Part shown: in pieces, positions 1,999-47,223 of the stretch | Layout: each line of letters begins with the position of its first letter | How positions within the stretch are numbered: the first letter of the stretch is position 1 | DNA from: Podarcis gaigeae | Lineage: Eukaryota | NCBI GenBank assembly: GCA_964106915.2 | Contig: OZ066914.1 | Direction: 5' to 3' (one strand) | DNA length: 64,000 nt | Notes under the pieces: generated by a model | Database searches by the model: none | What the model saw: only the letters and a program-made list of their open reading frames with translations | What the model was told of the DNA's origin: nothing | Made by a program: the position numbers and the translations under genes

Positions 1999-2041
1999 TA
2001 GGCGACGTTTCGACGAGGTCTCACTCGTCATCTTCAGGCTG
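1999..2041 (-). ncRNA. Minimal type I hammerhead ribozyme motif (left arm)
   Basis: Reverse complement reads CUGAAGA-U-GACGAG-ugagac-CUCGUC-GAAA-C-GUC: conserved core, 6-bp stem II, palindromic ACGU stem III; stem I is weak. Confidence 0.75.
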
Positions 2042-4303
2042 GTGCTTTCGGCTTCTTGTTACTGGAACAGAGCGGGATCTCAATGTTTGAGTTCCTATAA
2101 ATACTGTAGAGGGGGTGTGGTGTCTAGCCTCCAATGTTCTGGGCAGAGAGGAAGTTCCCAGGCTAGTGTGCCTTTTCTTCTTTTGTTCCTTAATTACTTG
2201 AGAGATACCTTGAGTGATTTCTTGAGTGATATCCTGAGTACCACTTAGGTGGGTCATTAGGTGTGGATTAGTTGCTAAAGTCTTTGTGTCTTGACCTCTT
2301 GAACTTTGTGAAGAGTTTTCCTGAGAAGATGGCTGTATTGCACTTAGTTGTGCTTTGGCTTGGCTTCGTGTATAGGGGCGAGCTGTGGTTTTGTGGCTTG
2401 TGTCAGCCAGATCTGTGTAGGGATTGCAGGGGGGTGCAGCATCCGGAGGTGCCACCATGGATTGGCTACTGGATGGTGTCAGTAATTCATCTGTGGAGAG
2501 GGTCTGGGTTTGGGTCTGGTGTGGTTGATTGGTGTTGGCGTTCTGTGTGCCTCTGGATCTGGTGTCAGTTTTTGTGGGGAGGGCTAATTTCCAGGTGTCT
2601 GGCAAGCGGGATGTGTCGTCACGCTTGTTCATGTTGTGAGGGTGTTTCTCTATCTCGATGGCTTCCATGATTATTCTCTTGTGGTGATGTTCCGTGTTAA
2701 AGAGCAATTTGGAATCTGCAAAATTAATTTCGTGTCCTGTTTCTTTCATGTGTTGGAAAAGAGAGGAAGTTTTTTCTTCTTTTTTGACGGCATTCTTGTG
2801 TTCTGCGATACGTGCATTTATTCGTCTGTTTGTTTGTCCAATGTACGTGGCTGGGCAGACTTTGCAGGGTATTTCATAGATCCCTTGGTTTTCCAACTGG
2901 ATTTTATCCTTGGGGTTTCTGAGGATATTGGCTATTTTTTGGTTGGTGCAAAAGGCTGTTTTGATATTGTGTTTATGGAGGATTTTGCTAATTTTATCTG
3001 TAGTGCCCTTGATATAAGGAAGGAGGGCCATGCCATTGTTTTCTTCTGTGTCTTGGTTTTTGGGGGGTGTTTCCTTTTGGATTAGCTTCGTAATCCTGTT
3101 TTGCTGGTATCCATTGGCAATTAACACATTTGAGAGATTCTGTAACTCAGTTGTCAAGTGGTCTTTGTCAGCCAGGCGTTTGGTTCTGGAGATGAGAGTC
3201 TTGGCTACGGAGTTTATTTGTGCAGGGTGGTGGTGTGATTGTGCATGTAAGTAGCGGTTGGTGTGTGTTTTTTTCTGGTAGATAGTGTGTCCTAGGGAGC
3301 CATCAGGTTTTTTGTAGATTAGGACGTCAAGGAAGGGAAGTTGGTTGTTGGCTTCTATTTCCATAGTGAATTGTATTTTGGGGTGTAAGTTGTTGAGATG
3401 TGTGAGGAAGCTATCCAGTTTTTCCTTCCCGTGTGGCCAAATTACAAAGGTGTCGTCAACATATCTGAGCCAAAGTTTGGGTTTGTGTTCTGACTTGTCT
3501 AAAGCATTGGTTTCAAAGTGTTCCATGTACAGGTTTGCGATGACCGGTGAGAGGGGTGATCCCATAGGTGCTCCTTCTATCTGTTTGTATCTTTGTCCAT
3601 TGTGGATGAAGTACGTGTTGGTTAGGCAGTGGTTGGTCAGGTCCAAGATGTATTCGGGGGGATTGTATTTGTTTTGAATAGCTGTCAAGGCTTCATTAAT
3701 GGGCACTTGTGTGAAGAGAGATACAACATCGAAGCTCACAAGTAGGTCATTAGGATGTAGGTTTTGCTTCTTTATTGTTTCTATGAACTGGAAGGAGTTT
3801 GGTACGTGTGAAGAGATGGATTCTGCATAGGGCTGAAGTTGCTTGGCGAGAAATTTAGCGAGATTTTGTAGAGGTGAGCCTATGGAGCTGACTATTGGTC
3901 TGAGTGGTGTTCCTTCTTTGTGTATCTTGGGGAGGCCGTAGAGTTTGGGGCATCTGGATGATTTTTCTCTGGGGATGATTCTTAGCTGGATTTCTTCACT
4001 GATAGGAGAGGCTTTTATTTTGGATTTGGTGGTTTTTTCCAGATAGGTGGTGGGATCTGTTTTTATAGGTTTGTAGGCAGGATCTTGGAGTAGCTTTGAT
4101 AGTTTTGCTTGGTAGTCCGATGTGTTCATCACCACTGTGGCATTACCTTTGTCTGCTGGGAGAATGATTATGTTGTTGTCTTTCCTCAGGTTGGTGAGTG
4201 CTTTCTGTTCTTCTTTGTGTAAATTGCTTCTGGGTGGTTTGCTGGAGCAGAGGATGTTGGTGACTTCAAGTCTGATTTTATTGGCTTCATCTGGGTTGAA
4301 TTT
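2021..4303 (-). CDS. Penelope-like reverse transcriptase + GIY-YIG endonuclease ORF (N-terminally truncated, about 760 aa without stops)
   Basis: RT motifs YGLPKIHK, PLRPIVS, SFDVVSLFT, GAPMGSPLSP, RYVDDTF, LPFLDV; endonuclease GIYEIPCKVC..YIGQT..RIAEH. No Cys-rich RT-EN linker, consistent with Penelope/Poseidon rather than Neptune. The first ~24 aa of the listed 784-aa ORF come from the inverted arm. Confidence 0.93.
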   Translation of the reverse strand, partial: KFNPDEANKIRLEVTNILCSSKPPRSNLHKEEQKALTNLRKDNNIIILPADKGNATVVMNTSDYQAKLSKLLQDPAYKPIKTDPTTYLEKTTKSKIKASPISEEIQLRIIPREKSSRCPKLYGLPKIHKEGTPLRPIVSSIGSPLQNLAKFLAKQLQPYAESISSHVPNSFQFIETIKKQNLHPNDLLVSFDVVSLFTQVPINEALTAIQNKYNPPEYILDLTNHCLTNTYFIHNGQRYKQIEGAPMGSPLSPVIANLYMEHFETNALDKSEHKPKLWLRYVDDTFVIWPHGKEKLDSFLTHLNNLHPKIQFTMEIEANNQLPFLDVLIYKKPDGSLGHTIYQKKTHTNRYLHAQSHHHPAQINSVAKTLISRTKRLADKDHLTTELQNLSNVLIANGYQQNRITKLIQKETPPKNQDTEENNGMALLPYIKGTTDKISKILHKHNIKTAFCTNQKIANILRNPKDKIQLENQGIYEIPCKVCPATYIGQTNRRINARIAEHKNAVKKEEKTSSLFQHMKETGHEINFADSKLLFNTEHHHKRIIMEAIEIEKHPHNMNKRDDTSRLPDTWKLALPTKTDTRSRGTQNANTNQPHQTQTQTLSTDELLTPSSSQSMVAPPDAAPPCNPYTDLADTSHKTTARPYTRSQAKAQLSAIQPSSQENSSQSSRGQDTKTLATNPHLMTHLSGTQDITQEITQGISQVIKEQKKKRHTSLGTSSLPRTLEARHHTPSTVFIGTQTLRSRSVPVTRSRKHQPEDDE

Positions 4304-5267
4304 GGATCTATGAAATACCCTGCAAAGTCTGCCCAGCCACGTACATTGGACAAACAAACAGACGAATAAATGCACGTATCGCAGAACACAAGAATGCCGT
4401 CAAAAAAGAAGAAAAAACTTCCTCTCTTTTCCAACACATGAAAGAAACAGGACACGAAATTAATTTTGCAGATTCCAAATTGCTCTTTAACACGGAACAT
4501 CACCACAAGAGAATAATCATGGAAGCCATCGAGATAGAGAAACACCCTCACAACATGAACAAGCGTGACGACACATCCCGCTTGCCAGACATCTGGAAAT
4601 TAGCCCTCCCCACAAAAACTGACACCAGATCCAGAGGCACACAGAACGCCAACACCAATCAACCACACCAGACCCAAACCCAGACCCTCTCCACAGATGA
4701 ATTACTGACACCATCCAGTAGCCAATCCATGGTGGCACCTCCGGATGCTGCACCCCCCTGCAATCCCTACACAGATCTGGCTGACACAAGCCACAAAACC
4801 ACAGCTCGCCCCTATACACGAAGCCAAGCCAAAGCACAACTAAGTGCAATACAGCCATCTTCTCAGGAAAACTCTTCACAAAGTTCAAGAGGTCAAGACA
4901 CAAAGACTTTAGCAACTAATCCACACCTAATGACCCACCTAAGTGGTACTCAGGATATCACTCAAGAAATCACTCAAGGTATCTCTCAAGTAATTAAGGA
5001 ACAAAAGAAGAAAAGGCACACTAGCCTGGGAACTTCCTCTCTGCCCAGAACATTGGAGGCTAGACACCACACCCCCTCTACAGTATTTATAGGAACTCAA
5101 ACATTGAGATCCCACTCTGTTCCAGTAACAAGAAGCCGAAAGCACCAGCCTGAAGATGACGAGTGAGACCTCGTCGAAACGTCGCCTAGACACCCCAACT
5201 TTTACACGGGAAGACACCCGAGGACACCAAAACCTGCATTCCTGTACCCGTGAAAATCTACGAAAGC
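4304..5267 (+). repeat. Inverted arm of the Penelope-like element (GIY-YIG region to 3' end plus tail)
   Basis: Starts at the GIY codons (gg atc tat gaa ata ccc); ORF 4438-5166 matches the C-terminus of the minus-strand ORF except T/I (2595/4592) and R/H (2073/5114). Confidence 0.95.
5146..5188 (+). ncRNA. Minimal type I hammerhead ribozyme motif (right arm)
   Basis: CTGAAGA 5150-5156, stem II GACGAG 5158-5163 / CTCGTC 5170-5175, GAAA 5176-5179, GTC 5181-5183 (predicted cleavage after 5183). Confidence 0.75.
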
Positions 5268-39675: not shown

Positions 39676-41467
39676 AGGATTAATTACTTTTAGATATGAA
39701 AGATGAGGCCATATGTTACGGCGACATACCACATTGCGAAAATGTTTTCACACGCGCGCAAGCACACACCTCTTATTCCCGCTCTAAACAATGTATATGT
39801 CTACTTAACGAAAGCTTTGTCTGACCATTTTAGAAACCCCTCTACTGTGAACTAATGTTGTTTTGCTTTATTATTCTGCCCGTGTTTGGAAAAGTGGCTT
39901 AAAAAACCCTCCCAAAACTTGCTCAGCTTAATTCAAAATAAAGATTGCAGGCTTACATGACGACCAGCAGTCAGATACTGTAGCACCAGTGATAATGTAC
40001 AGGCACAACTTGCGAGTAACCAAGGAGAGCAGATAAATTTAGAGGGCTCTTGGGAACTTTCCCTGCTCCACACTTCAATGATGAACAAATTTAGAAAGAT
40101 CCCACACTGTTTCAAGAATTGGCCTGAGTCACTCGACAGCCCTTCTCAAGTTTCAGGCCTAAGTGGAGAACCTCCTCTCAGTTTGGCTGCATCTCCCTCC
40201 AGAGCCATTTGGCTAAGCTGATTTGACAGCAGAGCTGTGGTGCAAGTCTGTGGCTGCATTCACATGGCCAAAGATGGGTTTGTTCTGAAGCTGACATCGG
40301 GGTGCTTTGCTCATTTCAGTACCATGGGTACAAAGTTACATGACGGCTTCCCTCAGCATCTGCAGTAGAGAGACGATAAAATAGACATGCTTAAGCTACC
40401 TTGTGAGAGAGGCGAAGCAAGCGGTTGTAGCACAACAGGTTTTTACTTGTCGCTACACTACATTGTCTTTCTCACACACAGCAAAAAGTGATCTGGCCCT
40501 GGACTGACTATGATTGAGAGACACAGGATGGATGTTATTTTGATTCATTTTGAGCAAATCTTGACTGGACAGAGGAAATTCTTGCCCTTTCCCCCTGTGA
40601 CTGTCTGGGGTGGGGAAAAACTAAATGGTACATTAAATGGACATAAGCATTTAATGGGTTTTGTTTTACTTTGAAAGTAAAAGCGGTGCGTGATCATGGT
40701 GGTGTATTTTCACCAGGATAGTAGAGCAGAGGGGGGAAATGTCAGTTCTCTCCTGATCTTCCTCACAGCTACTATTTTTTTTAGAATAAAAACATAATAT
40801 GCTAAATGCAATTAATTTCTTCTTGTCTGGCCCACGGACTGACAAGAGGAACCACACTGTGTTGATCAAGAAACAAAATGGGTACAACCGCTCTAGCCTT
40901 TGGGTATGTGCTTCTCCTGTAATTTGTGTACGATCCTTTAATGCGCAATTTTAGTGGAAATCCTTGAATCTGCTAGCAGAGGCCAATGAGGTTTTGGCTG
41001 AAAAAGAGAGAGGGCGGTGTGACATGGCTTAGCCGTCCAATGGTAGCTAGAGGCTGTGAGCCTGGTGCATTATGATAGTCTCCCATTAAGAGGAGACACC
41101 GGGTGTTTGACAGCTCAAGTTCCATCATGTGACATAGGTCTAGGAGGCATCAGTATCAGGGCTTGGCTGCTTAGGTTTAGCATTTCTTGCACGAAAATAG
41201 CTGCCACACCAGGTGCAACTTTCCCCACCGTGTTCAGTTTCAACTGCAAAAATCCCCTTTGAATAAGCCTCTGGCAATGGAAAACAAAGTGCAGATCAGG
41301 GTTAGTCCTCCCCCTCCCCTTTCCCTTTTTTATGTAATTGCATGATTTCAATGTAAACATTATGATATAAGTGGCAGAGAGAGAGAGAGAGAGGTTACCT
41401 ACAACTGTTCTATAACCAGTCCAGTATTTGTGCAAGCTTCTCTTCTGAATCAATGTCCACAATGCTT

Positions 41468-41500
41468 TTAAAGAGACAAGTGTTTCTCCCTTTCTCTGTG
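41468..41500 (-). CDS. TCF15-like bHLH gene, coding exon 2 (HREREKHLSL*)
   Basis: Acceptor tgcctttattctatttgcag| then CAC AGA GAA AGG GAG AAA CAC TTG TCT CTT TAA in phase 0; a short charged C-terminal exon at the same position as in SCX/TCF15. Confidence 0.8.
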   Translation of the reverse strand, partial: HREREKHLSL

Positions 41501-42396
41501 CTGCAAATAGAATAAAGGCATCCATTATAACGAGGCAGTGCACATAAACCATACATTAAAGTTTTATTTCAGTTCAGTTGTCAGTGGCCATCTCACCCAA
41601 ATTTTACCTGTTAATATAAAAGGTCCTAGCCACCAAAGCAGAGATAAGCTTCACCTGTGCACTTCACGGTTGGTTGGGGTTTAAACGCCTGAACATTTCA
41701 AACACTGACAGTCTCAGTTTTGAAATATGAAATTTATGTATATAAATTCTTTTCAGTGCAAGCTATAAAATAGACCAGGCACAATGAAGCTAAAAGAAAG
41801 GGGGGAAATATTCTTTTTTAAAAAAAATATTCTATTGAGGAAGAGAAAGAGAAAAATCTTCATACAGTATGGAACAAAATAAAAGGAAAACACACAAAGG
41901 CCCCAAATGTAAACAGGATGTTACACTTGGCAGGTGATGATGCAAATCCCCAAAATAAGAGGGAAATGCAAATTATTTTTCCCAGCTACAACACAAAGCA
42001 AACTGCAGCTTTTGCACATTTATTCAAGCAATGCTCACATGAAGGGAGTGAGTTTTTGTAAGGAACATGCTTTAAAAAGAAGGAGTGTGCGCGCACACAC
42101 ACATGGTGCCCGAACAGTTTCAGACAAGGATTGTCTGTTCTGTACATATTTTGGTTCCCCAACTGGACACACTGAGTTAACGAAAGCTCTAGTTCACCTT
42201 TCTGATACGTTCCTCAATTTGATGCCAGTTCAGGTGCAGGCTTTAAAGCCGATGACCAGAGCAGAGGCTCACCTTCCTGCAAAATTCTCCCTTGCTACAC
42301 CTCTGCTGAAAACAACCCCAATCCGTGCAGGCCACAGCTTGCGGTGTATATGTTTGGGGGATGGGGATGTTACTGAGTGCTAGATGCCAGCCTTAC

Positions 42397-42882
42397 CAGC
42401 TTCCTCTGGTTGCTCAGGCAGAAGGTACAGATTGGTCTTGGTGCTGTTGCTGTGCCGCCGCCCTGCAGGAGAGGCTGGTATTGCAAGCAGGGCTGCCTGG
42501 AAGGCAGCTGTTGCTCCCCCAAGCTCTCGCTCAGTTGCGGTGGCTGCTGCTGCTGCTGCTGCTGTAGGAGCAGCATGTTAGCCAGGTGGGAGATGTAGCT
42601 GGAGGCCAGGCGCAAGGTCTCTATCTTGGACAGCTTGCGGTCTGCGGGCTCGGTTGGGATGAGGGTGCGGAGGGTGCTGAAGGCTGTGTTCACGCTGTGG
42701 GTTCGGTCCCTCTCCCGGGCATTGGCAGCTTGCCTCTGCTTGCTCAGCCCGCTCAGCCGAGGGCTCTTCCGCTTGCGCTTCCCTTGGGCTCCGGTGGAAG
42801 TCAAGGATTTTCCGGAGCTGCTCTCGCTGCTGCCGCTCTCCAGTTCCTCCAGGTCGGATGCAGCACCCCCGCTCGACTTCAT
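42397..42882 (-). CDS. Paraxis/scleraxis-family bHLH transcription factor (transcription factor 15-like), coding exon 1
   Basis: b[61 protein letters not shown] and family motif [11 protein letters not shown]; Kozak-like ctcaccATG with upstream in-frame stops; donor CTG|GTAAGG at 42396 right after NQRKL; spliced product 172 aa, intron 41501-42396. Confidence 0.93.
42544..42564 (-). repeat. (CAG)7 polyglutamine tract inside the bHLH gene
   Basis: Seven CTG units on the + strand directly after helix 2. Confidence 0.95.
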
Positions 42883-42899
42883 GGTGAGCCCAGCAGCCC

Positions 42900-43170
42900 C
42901 TCGGCCCCATCACTTTTATGCACAGCAGCTGCCACATTGCTCCTGTTAGCATCAGCCGCTGCTCTCCCAACTCCCCTCCAGCAGCAGGGTCATTTTTTGA
43001 ATGGTTGCTCCTTTTAGATCTAGCATATGGTTGCTCTGTAAATAAGGCGAAGGAGGTGGAGCTGCCACCTCAAAGTAGCTGCACAGCTACGCCGGAGCTG
43101 TGCACCTGTTTCCCCCTTGTCATGTAAAAATGTGCAAGCTCTCTGGGAAGCTGCAGTGAGCATGTGCAGT
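42900..43170 (-). promoter_or_regulatory. Putative proximal promoter / 5' region of the bHLH gene
   Basis: TATA-like CATAAAA (about 42915-42921) and TATTTA (about 43039-43044); E-boxes CAGCTG 42926-42931, CATATG 43024-43029, CACCTG 43103-43108, CATGTG 43161-43166; motif matches only. Confidence 0.35.
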
Positions 43171-43263
43171 GGGGAAATGGAAGCCCTTTCCCCAACCTTT
43201 GCCCTCAATTTCAGTAAGTTCACAATTCACAGTGACTACATATTTAAAAGGTTGAAATACTGT

Positions 43264-43670
43264 ACATAGGAAGCTGCAATATACTGAATCAGACTATACT
43301 GAGTCCATATAGCTTGGTACAGTGGTACTTCGGGTTACAAACACTTTGGGTTACAGACTCCGCTAACCCGGAAGCAGTACCTTGGGTTAAGAACTTTACC
43401 TCAGGATGAGAACAGAAATCGCGCGGCGGCAGCAGGAGGCCCCATTAGCTAAAGCGGTACCTCAGGTTAGGAACGGTTTCAGGTTAAGAATGGACCTCTG
43501 GAACGAATTAAGTTCGTAACCAGAGGTACCACTGTATTACCTATAGTGGCTGACAGGGCCTTTCTCCAGGATTTCAAGAAGGAATTATTCCCAGCTGTAC
43601 TCTGAGGACACCAGGAATTGAACCTGGGACTTTTTGCATGGGAAGCAGATGCTCTACCACTAAGCTACAG
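43264..43670 (-). mobile_element. tRNA-derived SINE (Squam3-like) interrupted by a mariner-type MITE
   Basis: Minus-strand head ctgtagcttagtggtagagcatctgc...ccaggttcaattcctgg; tail gcagcttcctatgt; MITE inserted at 43320-43534. Confidence 0.75.
43320..43534. mobile_element. Tc1/mariner (Tigger-like) MITE with TA TSD
   Basis: TIRs cagtggtac(t/c)tc..gttac / gtaac..gaggtaccactg flanked by TA. Confidence 0.88.
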
Positions 43671-43986
43671 TTATTCCCTGGTTTCTACTGTTAGGAAAGA
43701 CATGCATTTCTGGGACACATTTTTAAAAGTGTATGTGTTACTCTCACATCCAGGTACATTCATGCTTCCCCAAAATTCATATACCTGCTTCCATCCATTT
43801 CCACACACAAATACTCTGTGTATCCAGCTTCTTTTCAACAGGCTTTTGAAGGAATAGCTCTAATATAATAATTCACAGATTAGCCTTTTTGTAATACTTT
43901 GCAAAGCACTCATAGTACCACTAATATCTTGACTTAAACTGATGGGCATCTTACCTCAGTCATACAGTTTGCATGACTGAGGTTTT

Positions 43987-44240
43987 NNNNNNNNNNNNNN
44001 NNNNNNNNNNNNNNNNNNNNNNNNNNNNNNNNNNNNNNNNNNNNNNNNNNNNNNNNNNNNNNNNNNNNNNNNNNNNNNNNNNNNNNNNNNNNNNNNNNNN
44101 NNNNNNNNNNNNNNNNNNNNNNNNNNNNNNNNNNNNNNNNNNNNNNNNNNNNNNNNNNNNNNNNNNNNNNNNNNNNNNNNNNNNNNNNNNNNNNNNNNNN
44201 NNNNNNNNNNNNNNNNNNNNNNNNNNNNNNNNNNNNNNNN
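43987..44240. other. Assembly gap (254 N)
   Basis: Run of N. Confidence 1.
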
Positions 44241-45140
44241 AAGAATATATAAAAGCTAAATGGAACGGAGAGAATTTTTGATGAATAGTTTTAATGTAAT
44301 TAACTGGTGCATTTGGAATTAACTTAGCACTGTCTATTGATTTTTCCATACCTAAAATAAGGCTGCCATATGTCCAGATTTTTCTGGACATTCAAAGGTG
44401 GAATTGACATCTGGGGAGAATTTCCAAAAGGTGGTGCTTTGTTCCAGATTTTATACAGGTCAATCAACAGAGGCACTACTAATATTAAGCATATGCCTTA
44501 ATTATTTGGGGTTATAAGTTTATCACCCATGTCCTTGAACTACAGCCCTTCATCCCTTGTTGATTTGGACTGTGTTTTCATTCTTTCCAAACTTCATCAG
44601 GCAATTCTAGGCCCTGTCAGCCCTCTACTGCCCCAAACTTTCCCTATTGCCAGTCCCCCTGTCCCAGTCATTTTGTCACCTTCCTGTTTACCAAAGGTAC
44701 CTTTTCGGCAGATGTGTTAAGGGTGTCAAAGCAGGGTTGGCCGATCCCATTTCACCACCTGAAATGGGAAAGTTCTGCTTTCCCACCCCTGCTGCCGAAG
44801 CCTTGCTTACCGGGGTCTCACATCATTATCGTCTTCTGGTGAGATCTCAAGCAATCACATGACACTCTTTAGATCTTTGTAAGATCTTTCTCGAAGCTGC
44901 TGCTGCTGCATGACCTTGGTGATGCCCCATGGGATTCCTCTGCCTGAGGTGACTGCTTTAGTCCACCTCATAGACAGGCGAGACCTGTGTGAAAGAGATG
45001 ACTACTCCTTGGGCCTCAAACAAGAGATGTTCAACTTGAAGACGCCTGGGAATGGTAGTTTATCGAGGTCTCCATGTTCAAGGTCCCAGTAGTCCTGGCA
45101 TCTTACATTTCCTATTATGTTTGAGCCACTAACTTAACTA

Positions 45141-45366
45141 CAGTGGTACCTCAGGTTAAGAACTTAATTCGTTCCAGAGGTCCGTTCTTAACCTGAAACT
45201 TTTCTTAACCTGAAGCACTACTTTAGCTAATGGGGCCTCCCGCTGCTGCCGCACCGCCGCCGCACGATTTCTGTTCTCATCCTGAAGCAAAGTTCTTAAC
45301 CCAAGGTACTATTTCTGGGTTAGTGGAGTCTGTAACCTGAAGCGTACGTAACCCGAGGTACCACTG
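45141..45366. mobile_element. Tc1/mariner (Tigger-like) MITE with TA TSD, opposite orientation to 43320-43534
   Basis: cagtggtacctc...gaggtaccactg flanked by TA; body is the reverse complement of the 43320 copy. Confidence 0.88.
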
Positions 45367-47223
45367 TATAAGGCTTTCAGATTTAAGCAACCTTCTCTTA
45401 TGCAGCCCTTTGTTGCTGCTGCTTTGATCGCAAAAAGGTCAACCCATGAGAGAGGAAAAGGGCCTTGGTGAGCACAGCTCAGAAAAAGCCAAAATTATTC
45501 ATGAGCTGAACTGCAATTCAGAGTGATTTGGGTTCATGCCATTAATTTCCAAGCTGTGGGGGGGTCATTTCTGAATCACCCCCATTCCGAAAATCTGCAA
45601 TGTCATGCCATGAACTGTTTGCCTCCCGTCTCAAACAACTGGTCCCCAAGATGGGAAGGTGTGTCTTCATGTGCATCATATAGTGCATGCAGCCAGGTCA
45701 AGGGTGTCTGGATAAGCACTGCAATGAACTTTTGTATAAACACTGACCAACATGCCAATATAAATGCCTTTCCTGCATATACATAGACCTCTTATCATTT
45801 TGAACTGGACAGATGATGGCTGGATGAACTTCTATCACTTTTTCTTCCAAGCACCAGTCATGCATACTTAATATGGACCATTTTTGGCCGTTTTCAAAAC
45901 ATGCCTTCCTCAACCATTTACTTATTAAAAGGTTAGCATTTGCACTCATTCATTATGCATGGCTTTTCCATAAAAAATGACAGCGCCATCACACTTTAAA
46001 GCCCCAGAAAGGTCACAGTCCAGGTTTTCCCAGCTGAATCATGTGACTGGCACTCAAACTAATTGCCAGAACTAAATAACCATTTTTACGTGACCCCCCT
46101 TCAGAAGATTATTGTCATTGTTTGTCTAAATATTGATCAGCTTTTCCACTCTAGTGTTGAGTTACCAGAGATGCCTCCCTCTTATCACAAATGCAAATGC
46201 TCCAAAATGGCCAGCTGCTTTGACATTCTTGGCCTAGAGTGTCATCATGCCATCTTGCAAACATTGCTAATGCCTATTTGTGGTTTCGTGACTGCCACAC
46301 AATAGTCTCACTATTGCTGTGTGATGCAGTCCTTCAGGCTCAGCATTGATGTTTCATGGTTTAAGCAGAGAAATCCACAGAATTGAACATAGCCAGAAAA
46401 ACACACTCCACAAATTGTGCTTCTTGTGCAATGCATTCATTATTCACTAATATAATCATTGAAATGACATATTGATAATTGATTTTAGCTAGGCTTCATG
46501 TGGCTAATTCCAGGAGAGCAAGGAGGGTTTTAGTTTGTGTTTCTTGAACAGTACTACCCAATGCAACATTGGCCACCTTGTACTTTCTGCCTATTGATGG
46601 GCAAAATCTCCTTTGCTTAATTTGGAACCAACTGGTACTGAGAAGCTTTTCATGAGGCTTTCGTTCTTTTCCAACAGTGTGGAGCGCAGCTGTATAGCTA
46701 CTAGCCAGAGGAAAGCCCCCAAGAGGGAATATGGGAGAAATATACGAGAAGATTACAAGCCAGTAAATTTTCTCTAGGTTTGGAATGTTGTTGCATGCAC
46801 TCTTAAAGTACCATGTACATGACCATATTGCTCCCTGGGAGTCTCTTTTTAGTTTAAGCTGCCCTGTGCCAGCCATAGCTGAGAGTCTCCTGGAAATCCA
46901 TCCAGCAATATTCAGACAAATACAGAAAAATAAATCGAAGAACAGTCGACATTTCTTGCCAGATTCCAAGCAATTTCTGTAGTTCTTTATGTATACTTGC
47001 AGCATCATGGTCATATCATACCAGTCCTTGTATTTTTTGTAGGATTGCCCTTTGCTGTTTGACATCTGAATCCAGGAAAATGGGTATCACTGAATATTTC
47101 CCTCTCTCATAACAAAACCAGCCCAACATCAACACATATAGGTTTCAGGGGTTGGTTTTGTGATAGGGAAATTTAATAAGCACAAGCCAAAATGGCAAGG
47201 TGTCAAATTTTATTCTAGCATTT

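Follow-up and report, generated by a model that had tools for sequence, protein, structure and literature searches.

Jawed vertebrates are credited with two genes of the paraxis family, TCF15 (paraxis) and SCX (scleraxis), and three papers describe both as derived from one parascleraxis gene (PMC8802780, PMC4458041, PMC10069465). Is a third one hidden among them? The question is raised by a bHLH gene of the paraxis/scleraxis type in the lizard Podarcis gaigeae, coded on the minus strand at 41468..42882 of a stretch of 64,000 nucleotides (the window), which the original prediction took to be a probable paralogue that is neither TCF15 nor SCX. We consider it probable that this gene, called the third gene here, is an intact, spliced, third paraxis-family bHLH gene of jawed vertebrates, separate from TCF15 and SCX, likely sister to both and likely an E-protein/E-box factor.

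Gene structure and transcripts

The two-exon coding sequence of the third gene specifies a product of 172 amino acids with the C-terminal end HREREKHLSL, and the gene continues past 41468..42882 by way of an untranslated third exon. Its features are, in the direction of transcription:

42913..42920, minus strand: TATA-like element, 30 nt upstream of the ATG, read from the sequence
42882-42397, minus strand: coding part of exon 1, residues 1-162, with an open frame from the ATG at 42882, covered by spliced contigs; from N to C terminus it contains an acidic/Ser N-terminus, a basic KRKRK stretch, the bHLH domain, poly-Q and a Cys motif
42583..42738, minus strand: bHLH domain, residues 49-100, Pfam PF00010 (HLH), E 7e-21, the sole HLH domain found
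42400..42429, minus strand: ten-residue family motif, residues 152-161, whose CxFC is present in amphioxus too
41501..42396, minus strand: intron 1, GT..AG, phase 0, 896 nt, with the donor position of TCF15 and SCX
41403..41500, minus strand: exon 2, the last 10 codons and the stop (41500-41468), then 65 nt of 3′ UTR
40360..41402, minus strand: intron 2, within the 3′ UTR, GT..AG, beginning 65 nt past the stop and supported by one contig in X1 and one in X5 that align in separate pieces
about 40359-39800, minus strand: exon 3, untranslated; 41403 is joined to 40359 in contigs, with AATAAA at 39867 and further down

The position of the TATA-like element would imply a very short 5′ UTR. Splicing of intron 1 is seen in contigs from two of the four sequencing runs compared (X1 and X5, two studies of related species, the RNA status of the runs being a guess), which join 41500 to 42397 with an exact skip of 41501-42396; such intron-less contigs are evidence of splicing, and of neither tissue nor level. 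The coding exons have no coverage in runs X2 and X3, and two raw-read runs from another species (X19 and X17, of which 12% and 6% were read) had zero reads on exon 1, blanks that are uninformative on expression. The related species differ from Podarcis gaigeae at far fewer positions in exon 1 (6 of 487 letters in X1, 5 of ∼486 in X5) than in the 3′ UTR exon (22 of 536 and 22 of 560, respectively), and their amino acid changes fall at residues 124 and 128, leaving the bHLH unchanged. The best database match of the protein is a Podarcis lilfordi ‘transcription factor 15-like’ protein, likewise of 172 amino acids and 99% identical.

Three further observations concern the surrounding DNA. Run X1 also has a low-depth contig within the 3′ UTR intron (40360-41402); a high-copy short interspersed repeat lies at 43318-43536, ∼440 nt upstream of the ATG; and the region 2021-5166 contains, on the minus strand, a reverse-transcriptase ORF of 792 amino acids with a GIY-YIG-like end, accompanied by an inverted partial copy, in the manner of a Penelope-type element.

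Position in the paraxis family

A search of the same genome with the bHLH of the third gene returned 42 matches: the gene itself on contig C1 (100%), one match on C15 (90%), one on C16 (86%), and others at 61% or less. Both the C15 and C16 genes start M-FA-LR...YP...LSEDEE, and their best database matches are named TCF15 (C15) and scleraxis (C16). The genome thus has three separate loci, as the original prediction had proposed.

The proteins are also told apart by a few positions, which we counted in the best 120 matches to each of the three queries. An MxFxxxR start is found in 102/120 SCX and 105/120 TCF15 matches and in none of the 120 third-gene matches; similarly, the N-terminal YP[DE] motif is present in 98, 78 and 0, respectively. 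The N-terminus usual in TCF15 and SCX, in the form M(S/A)FA.LR or YP[DE], which had been noted as missing from the lizard sequence, is absent from all 120 best homologues. The residue after RERDRT is H in 118/120 third-gene matches, N in 119/120 SCX matches and Q in 119/120 TCF15 matches, and the glycine of HLGN is present in 120/120 SCX matches, while the third gene has HLAN. All of the motifs on which the prediction had been based are found in the protein, including the exon 2 sequence HREREKHLSL. The three lizard proteins share the sequence ANARERDRT without a difference, such that the third protein has an intact ANARERxR basic region, and the CxFCL motif is present with the intron directly after it. 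The GT donor of lizard TCF15 and SCX has the same place and phase, one residue past the ten-residue motif, which bears out the claim that both motif and intron position are kept.

Phylogenetic analysis, with rows hand-picked from 360 matches to span the main lineages, likewise separates the three genes. Third gene, TCF15 and SCX group together against Twist, Hand, MyoR and PTF (SH-aLRT 86). In a quick tree of 71 rows, the third-gene clade contains 25/25 chosen orthologues (SH-aLRT 100), and a tree of 64 rows resolves three clades overall, that of the third gene having 15 rows and support of 99/98. Sharks represent only the third gene in these trees, shark SCX and TCF15 being absent among the matches listed. 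Nine species were found by all three queries and have all three genes, among them Latimeria, Protopterus, Amia, Erpetoichthys, Huso, Bombina, Pelodiscus, Sceloporus and Varanus. The third protein nests in neither the TCF15 nor the SCX clade. It also does not lie in the SLC52/FAM110 neighbourhood of TCF15, has no SLC52 neighbour as SCX does, lacks the RHTAN, RTNSVN and HLGN residues of SCX, and is neither the sole TCF15 nor the sole SCX candidate of its genome.

To root these clades we used amphioxus and five invertebrate-type proteins. SCX and TCF15 form a clade without the third gene (98/94; 982/1000 bootstraps), and alternatives to it have a p-AU of 0.039 under LG+G4, the only model used for the AU test and one that rejects true clades more often. 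A mixture model on 22 rows agrees at lower support, with SCX+TCF15 at 92/90, the third-gene clade at 81/95 and the vertebrate root at 77/86. The three genes group against amphioxus at 93/86 (LG+G4) or 77/86 (mixture model), a rooting that rests on ∼170 columns and long invertebrate branches. The third gene is found across jawed vertebrates and is younger than the amphioxus split, and by these trees it is likely to be the sister lineage of SCX+TCF15.

Three cyclostome proteins, added singly, joined SCX+TCF15 in 549, 851 and 797 of 1000 bootstraps, the third gene in 78, 19 and 37, and branched off before the three gnathostome genes in 31, 15 and 14; a fourth protein, from hagfish and with a long branch, was not included here. 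Because the cyclostome proteins lean towards SCX+TCF15, the split between the third gene and SCX+TCF15 likely predates the divergence of cyclostomes. None of the three proteins tested grouped with the third gene (best 78/1000), and therefore an early origin requires either loss in cyclostomes or an unsampled copy.

Amphioxus, too, carries RTHSVN, TEPADRK and YISHL, as well as the pre-basic stretch of the third gene. Among the new representatives, the residue after RERDRT is most often H (82/136). Of 62 core residues, amphioxus shares 54 with the lizard third protein, 48 with lizard TCF15 and 46 with lizard SCX; for the coelacanth proteins the figures are 54, 49 and 48. The mosaic of TCF15-like and SCX-like motifs that had been described is therefore real as to the motifs, but is better read as retained ancestral states, since amphioxus shares the odd residues; SYISHL, which had been taken as a mark of SCX, is also carried by coelacanth TCF15. 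Jawed vertebrates have three genes, not two, and the overlooked third is the most ancestor-like.

The species range is wide. The best 120 matches, 105 of which have organism names, come from squamates, tuatara, turtles, amphibians, lungfish, coelacanth, ray-finned and cartilaginous fish and three marsupials, and 60 columns are invariant in 28 orthologues from sharks to marsupials. A profile search added divergent H-type proteins, among them six from birds and one from echidna. In a tree without cyclostomes and invertebrates, the echidna protein and five of those from birds join the third-gene clade (100/100; 98/93 within the amniote group), with alternatives in that tree not rejected (p-AU 0.079); once cyclostomes and invertebrates are added, the bird and echidna proteins fall outside the third-gene clade, in a long-branch group that also contains a hagfish protein. 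They score best against the third-gene profile, and we consider them likely orthologues. In four bird proteins (P0393, P0403, P0409 and P0427; three named neoavian, one unnamed), the otherwise fixed loop has become TRPADRR, which would be a sign of fast change in birds. No placental or crocodilian orthologue is found among the 14 named of the 24 vertebrate-type H-class representatives listed. From this absence among the matches listed, the gene was likely lost in placentals, in agreement with the original remark that no human orthologue is known. By contrast, the view that the gene is retained in non-mammalian vertebrates has to be widened, because three marsupial proteins lie in the third-gene clade and the echidna protein likely belongs there.

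The third gene lies in the Hox/neurexophilin paralogon

Synteny was read in one genome (G000), over 100 kb on one side of the third gene and 300 kb on the other. One flank on C1 has a MATH-BTB-BACK (SPOP-like) gene and a neurexophilin gene, whose last exon is ∼65 kb away, and the other flank has a tandem-EGF gene; we take these to be SPOPL, NXPH2 and a VWDE-like gene, and the Hox cluster of this contig is presumably HOXD. The four best neurexophilin matches fall on C24, C25, C1 and C2, the same four contigs as Hox9. A search with one exon of the EGF gene gave a single paralogue; it is on C24, at 1.3 Mb from the neurexophilin gene of that contig. TCF15 and SCX each have SLC52 genes at a distance of 0.12-0.15 Mb (0.14 Mb for SCX, on C16), and FAM110 genes are on C15 (0.2 Mb from TCF15), C16, C3 and C17, not on C1. 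TCF15 and SCX have the appearance of an ohnologue pair, in a paralogon that is defined by these two markers in one genome. The third gene sits in the Hox/neurexophilin paralogon and outside the SLC52/FAM110 paralogon. An ohnologue from the two rounds of genome duplication would be expected to share the paralogon of TCF15 and SCX, and in this genome the third gene, on C1, is on none of C15, C16, C3 and C17; its description as a plain whole-genome-duplication paralogue thus finds weak support or none.

Several neighbouring genes deserve mention in their own right. The tandem-EGF gene (G000:C1:98358000-98424000; L031, L039, L044) is likely another retained paralogue that has been little studied, adjacent to the third gene. 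SCX is adjoined by two SLC52 riboflavin-transporter genes in tandem (G000:C16:1009000-1028000). Adjacent bHLH pairs occur on Hox contigs (G000:C1:134227254 and 134244195; C24:34016004 and 34039838), and the Fer3/PTF-like L009 and Twist-like L012 suggest a second Fer3-Twist pair on C1.

We lean towards a small-scale duplication before the genome duplications, which would need no extra steps in jawed vertebrates. A single chordate parascleraxis gene would have been duplicated before the lamprey/jawed-vertebrate split; one copy would have given rise to SCX and TCF15, and the other would survive as the third gene, which would have retained the ancestral bHLH, changed faster in birds and mammals and likely been lost in placentals.

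A real, though less probable, alternative is that the first round of genome duplication split the third gene from the SCX/TCF15 ancestor, that the second round split SCX from TCF15, and that the third gene later moved to a Hox chromosome. Two rounds followed by a single loss would produce the topology (third gene,(SCX,TCF15)), the split likely predates cyclostome divergence as the first round does, the three genes group against amphioxus (93/86), and a later move of a first-round copy would give the same synteny in one genome. However, a first-round copy is expected on C3 or C17, the other FAM110 contigs, and neither has a paraxis-type match; moreover, the paralogues of the C1 neighbours map to Hox contigs, and the extra move must be assumed. 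Slightly less probable again is a specific form of the history in which the third gene is the in-place descendant of a Hox-linked ancestral parascleraxis gene, TCF15 and SCX descend from a copy made before the genome duplications, which was relocated and acquired a new N-terminus, and the third gene retained an older, separate role, since lost in placentals.

Function, names and known relatives

Factors of this family bind CANNTG as heterodimers with E-proteins. Since the basic residues of the third protein are identical to those of TCF15 and SCX, we expect with good confidence, by analogy with the family, that it pairs with TCF3/4/12 on CANNTG sites, and the KRKRK stretch is a likely nuclear import signal. 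The acidic/Ser start and the CTFCL motif are kept across the 28 orthologues. The helices align with the structures of Twist1, TAL1 and NeuroD1; a PDB sequence search returned only these and ASCL1, with no paraxis-family structure among them, and the ESM Atlas returned only TCF15 and TCF15-like clusters. Family knowledge also makes a role in a mesodermal/connective-tissue programme overlapping that of TCF15 and SCX somewhat probable, overlap in somite derivatives being the simplest guess. A non-somitic role is possible given expression in other animals: amphioxus ‘Tcf15-like’, which may differ from the amphioxus protein in our trees, is reported to be enriched in neural plate (PMC11136973), and Hydra parascleraxis is reported to mark somatic gonad cells (PMC10069465).

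The locus has two features that may limit the output of the third gene. One is the junction within the 3′ UTR. Nonsense-mediated decay acts on mRNAs with a junction more than 50-55 nt beyond the stop, and with a junction at 65 nt the mRNA could be subject to decay. The other is a putative antisense RNA:

42883, plus strand: donor of the first intron (42883 to 44873, GT..AG); the RNA overlaps exon 1 of the third gene
44873..44977, plus strand: middle exon, in one X1 contig, with splice ends read in the sequence
46678..46935, plus strand: last exon, preceded by a GC..AG intron (44977 to 46678), with AATAAA at 46929

The plus-strand introns of one X1 contig suggest a spliced antisense RNA over exon 1; the model rests on this contig, and a contig from a second species stops at the same donor. 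Over the whole model (42883-46935, plus strand), the longest ATG frame has 99 codons. It is conceivable, if improbable, that the third protein dampens the targets of the family by competing for E-proteins and E-boxes, with its own output cut by mRNA decay and antisense RNA. The N-terminal motif common to TCF15 and SCX is absent in 120/120 best homologues, which together with the 3′ UTR intron and the antisense contig would suit such a dampener, but amphioxus likewise has no such motif, which makes the absence ancestral, the third protein retains both the acidic/Ser stretch and the basic region, and a single contig is behind the antisense RNA.

The names given to orthologues of the third gene are mixed. 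Database labels include ‘transcription factor 15-like’, ‘scleraxis-like’, zebrafish si:ch211-246m6.4 and Xenopus ‘Sclerax2’; the entries of zebrafish, Anolis and X. laevis carry the name ‘transcription factor 15’, and those of axolotl, bilby and echidna the name ‘scleraxis-like’. The frog orthologue is XP_002937913, which is tabled as ‘Sclerax2’ in PMC3842043 (support 74/59). Another paper reports that zebrafish has four genes of the paraxis family and lancelet two, and describes a chicken ‘Scleraxis2’ on the same contig as Scleraxis1 with support of 91/97 to scleraxis (PMC2862960); judged from that description, chicken ‘Scleraxis2’ is probably not the third gene. Full-text literature searches, supplements aside (single-cell marker tables may name the gene), gave reviews and surveys and, among the papers listed, no functional study of the third orthogroup; they found no paper that treats it as one or gives its synteny, none with ‘ch211-246m6.4’, and only an amphioxus atlas with ‘tcf15-like’. 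The gene is thus little studied, as had been supposed. It is mislabelled rather than unknown, and its range, and probably its origin, differ from those originally predicted.

Taken literally, the labels ‘TCF15-like’ and ‘Sclerax2’ would make the third gene a divergent copy of TCF15 or SCX. The 90% bHLH identity to TCF15 and the placement of the frog protein in Scleraxis (PMC3842043, support 74/59) agree with this reading. Nevertheless, we consider it very improbable and largely refuted: the third gene is sister to either gene alone in only 8/1000 and 5/1000 bootstraps (p-AU 0.039 under LG+G4), the residues in common are ancestral, and the N-terminal motif of TCF15 and SCX is missing. A pseudogene or assembly artefact, which would agree with the lack of reads on exon 1 in the two raw-read runs of another species (uninformative on tissue), is refuted for practical purposes by the open frame, the canonical splices, the spliced contigs from two studies and the 60 columns that stay the same across those 28 shark-to-marsupial orthologues.

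The mixed names are a practical trap, as expression tables may merge the third gene with true TCF15 or SCX. If the gene is expressed in somites or tendon, it could be an unnoticed backup in studies of tcf15 or scx loss in zebrafish, frog, axolotl and lizard, a backup that mice would be without.

Compared with TCF15, the third gene has a closely similar bHLH (90% identical in the lizard), the same 12-residue basic-region sequence, helix-2 HLAN, the CTFCL motif and the intron donor position, but it differs in having H for Q after RERDRT and TEPAD for TEPVD, in the lack of the MxFxxxR/YP[DE] start, in its own short tail and in its paralogon. With SCX it shares 86% of the lizard bHLH, the TEPADRK loop, the CTFCL motif and the intron position, but has RQAAN rather than RHTAN, H rather than N, and HLAN rather than HLGN, with an N-terminus, tail and paralogon unlike those of SCX. 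The database entries are the same orthologues, but under automatic or table-only labels. Finally, the parascleraxis proteins of invertebrates and cyclostomes (amphioxus ‘TCF15-like’/‘SCX’, lamprey) have RTHSVN, TEPADRK and L[ST]G[LV]SKQRQ in common with the third gene; however, the third gene sides with the vertebrate genes against amphioxus, and the cyclostome proteins tested lean to SCX+TCF15, away from the third gene.
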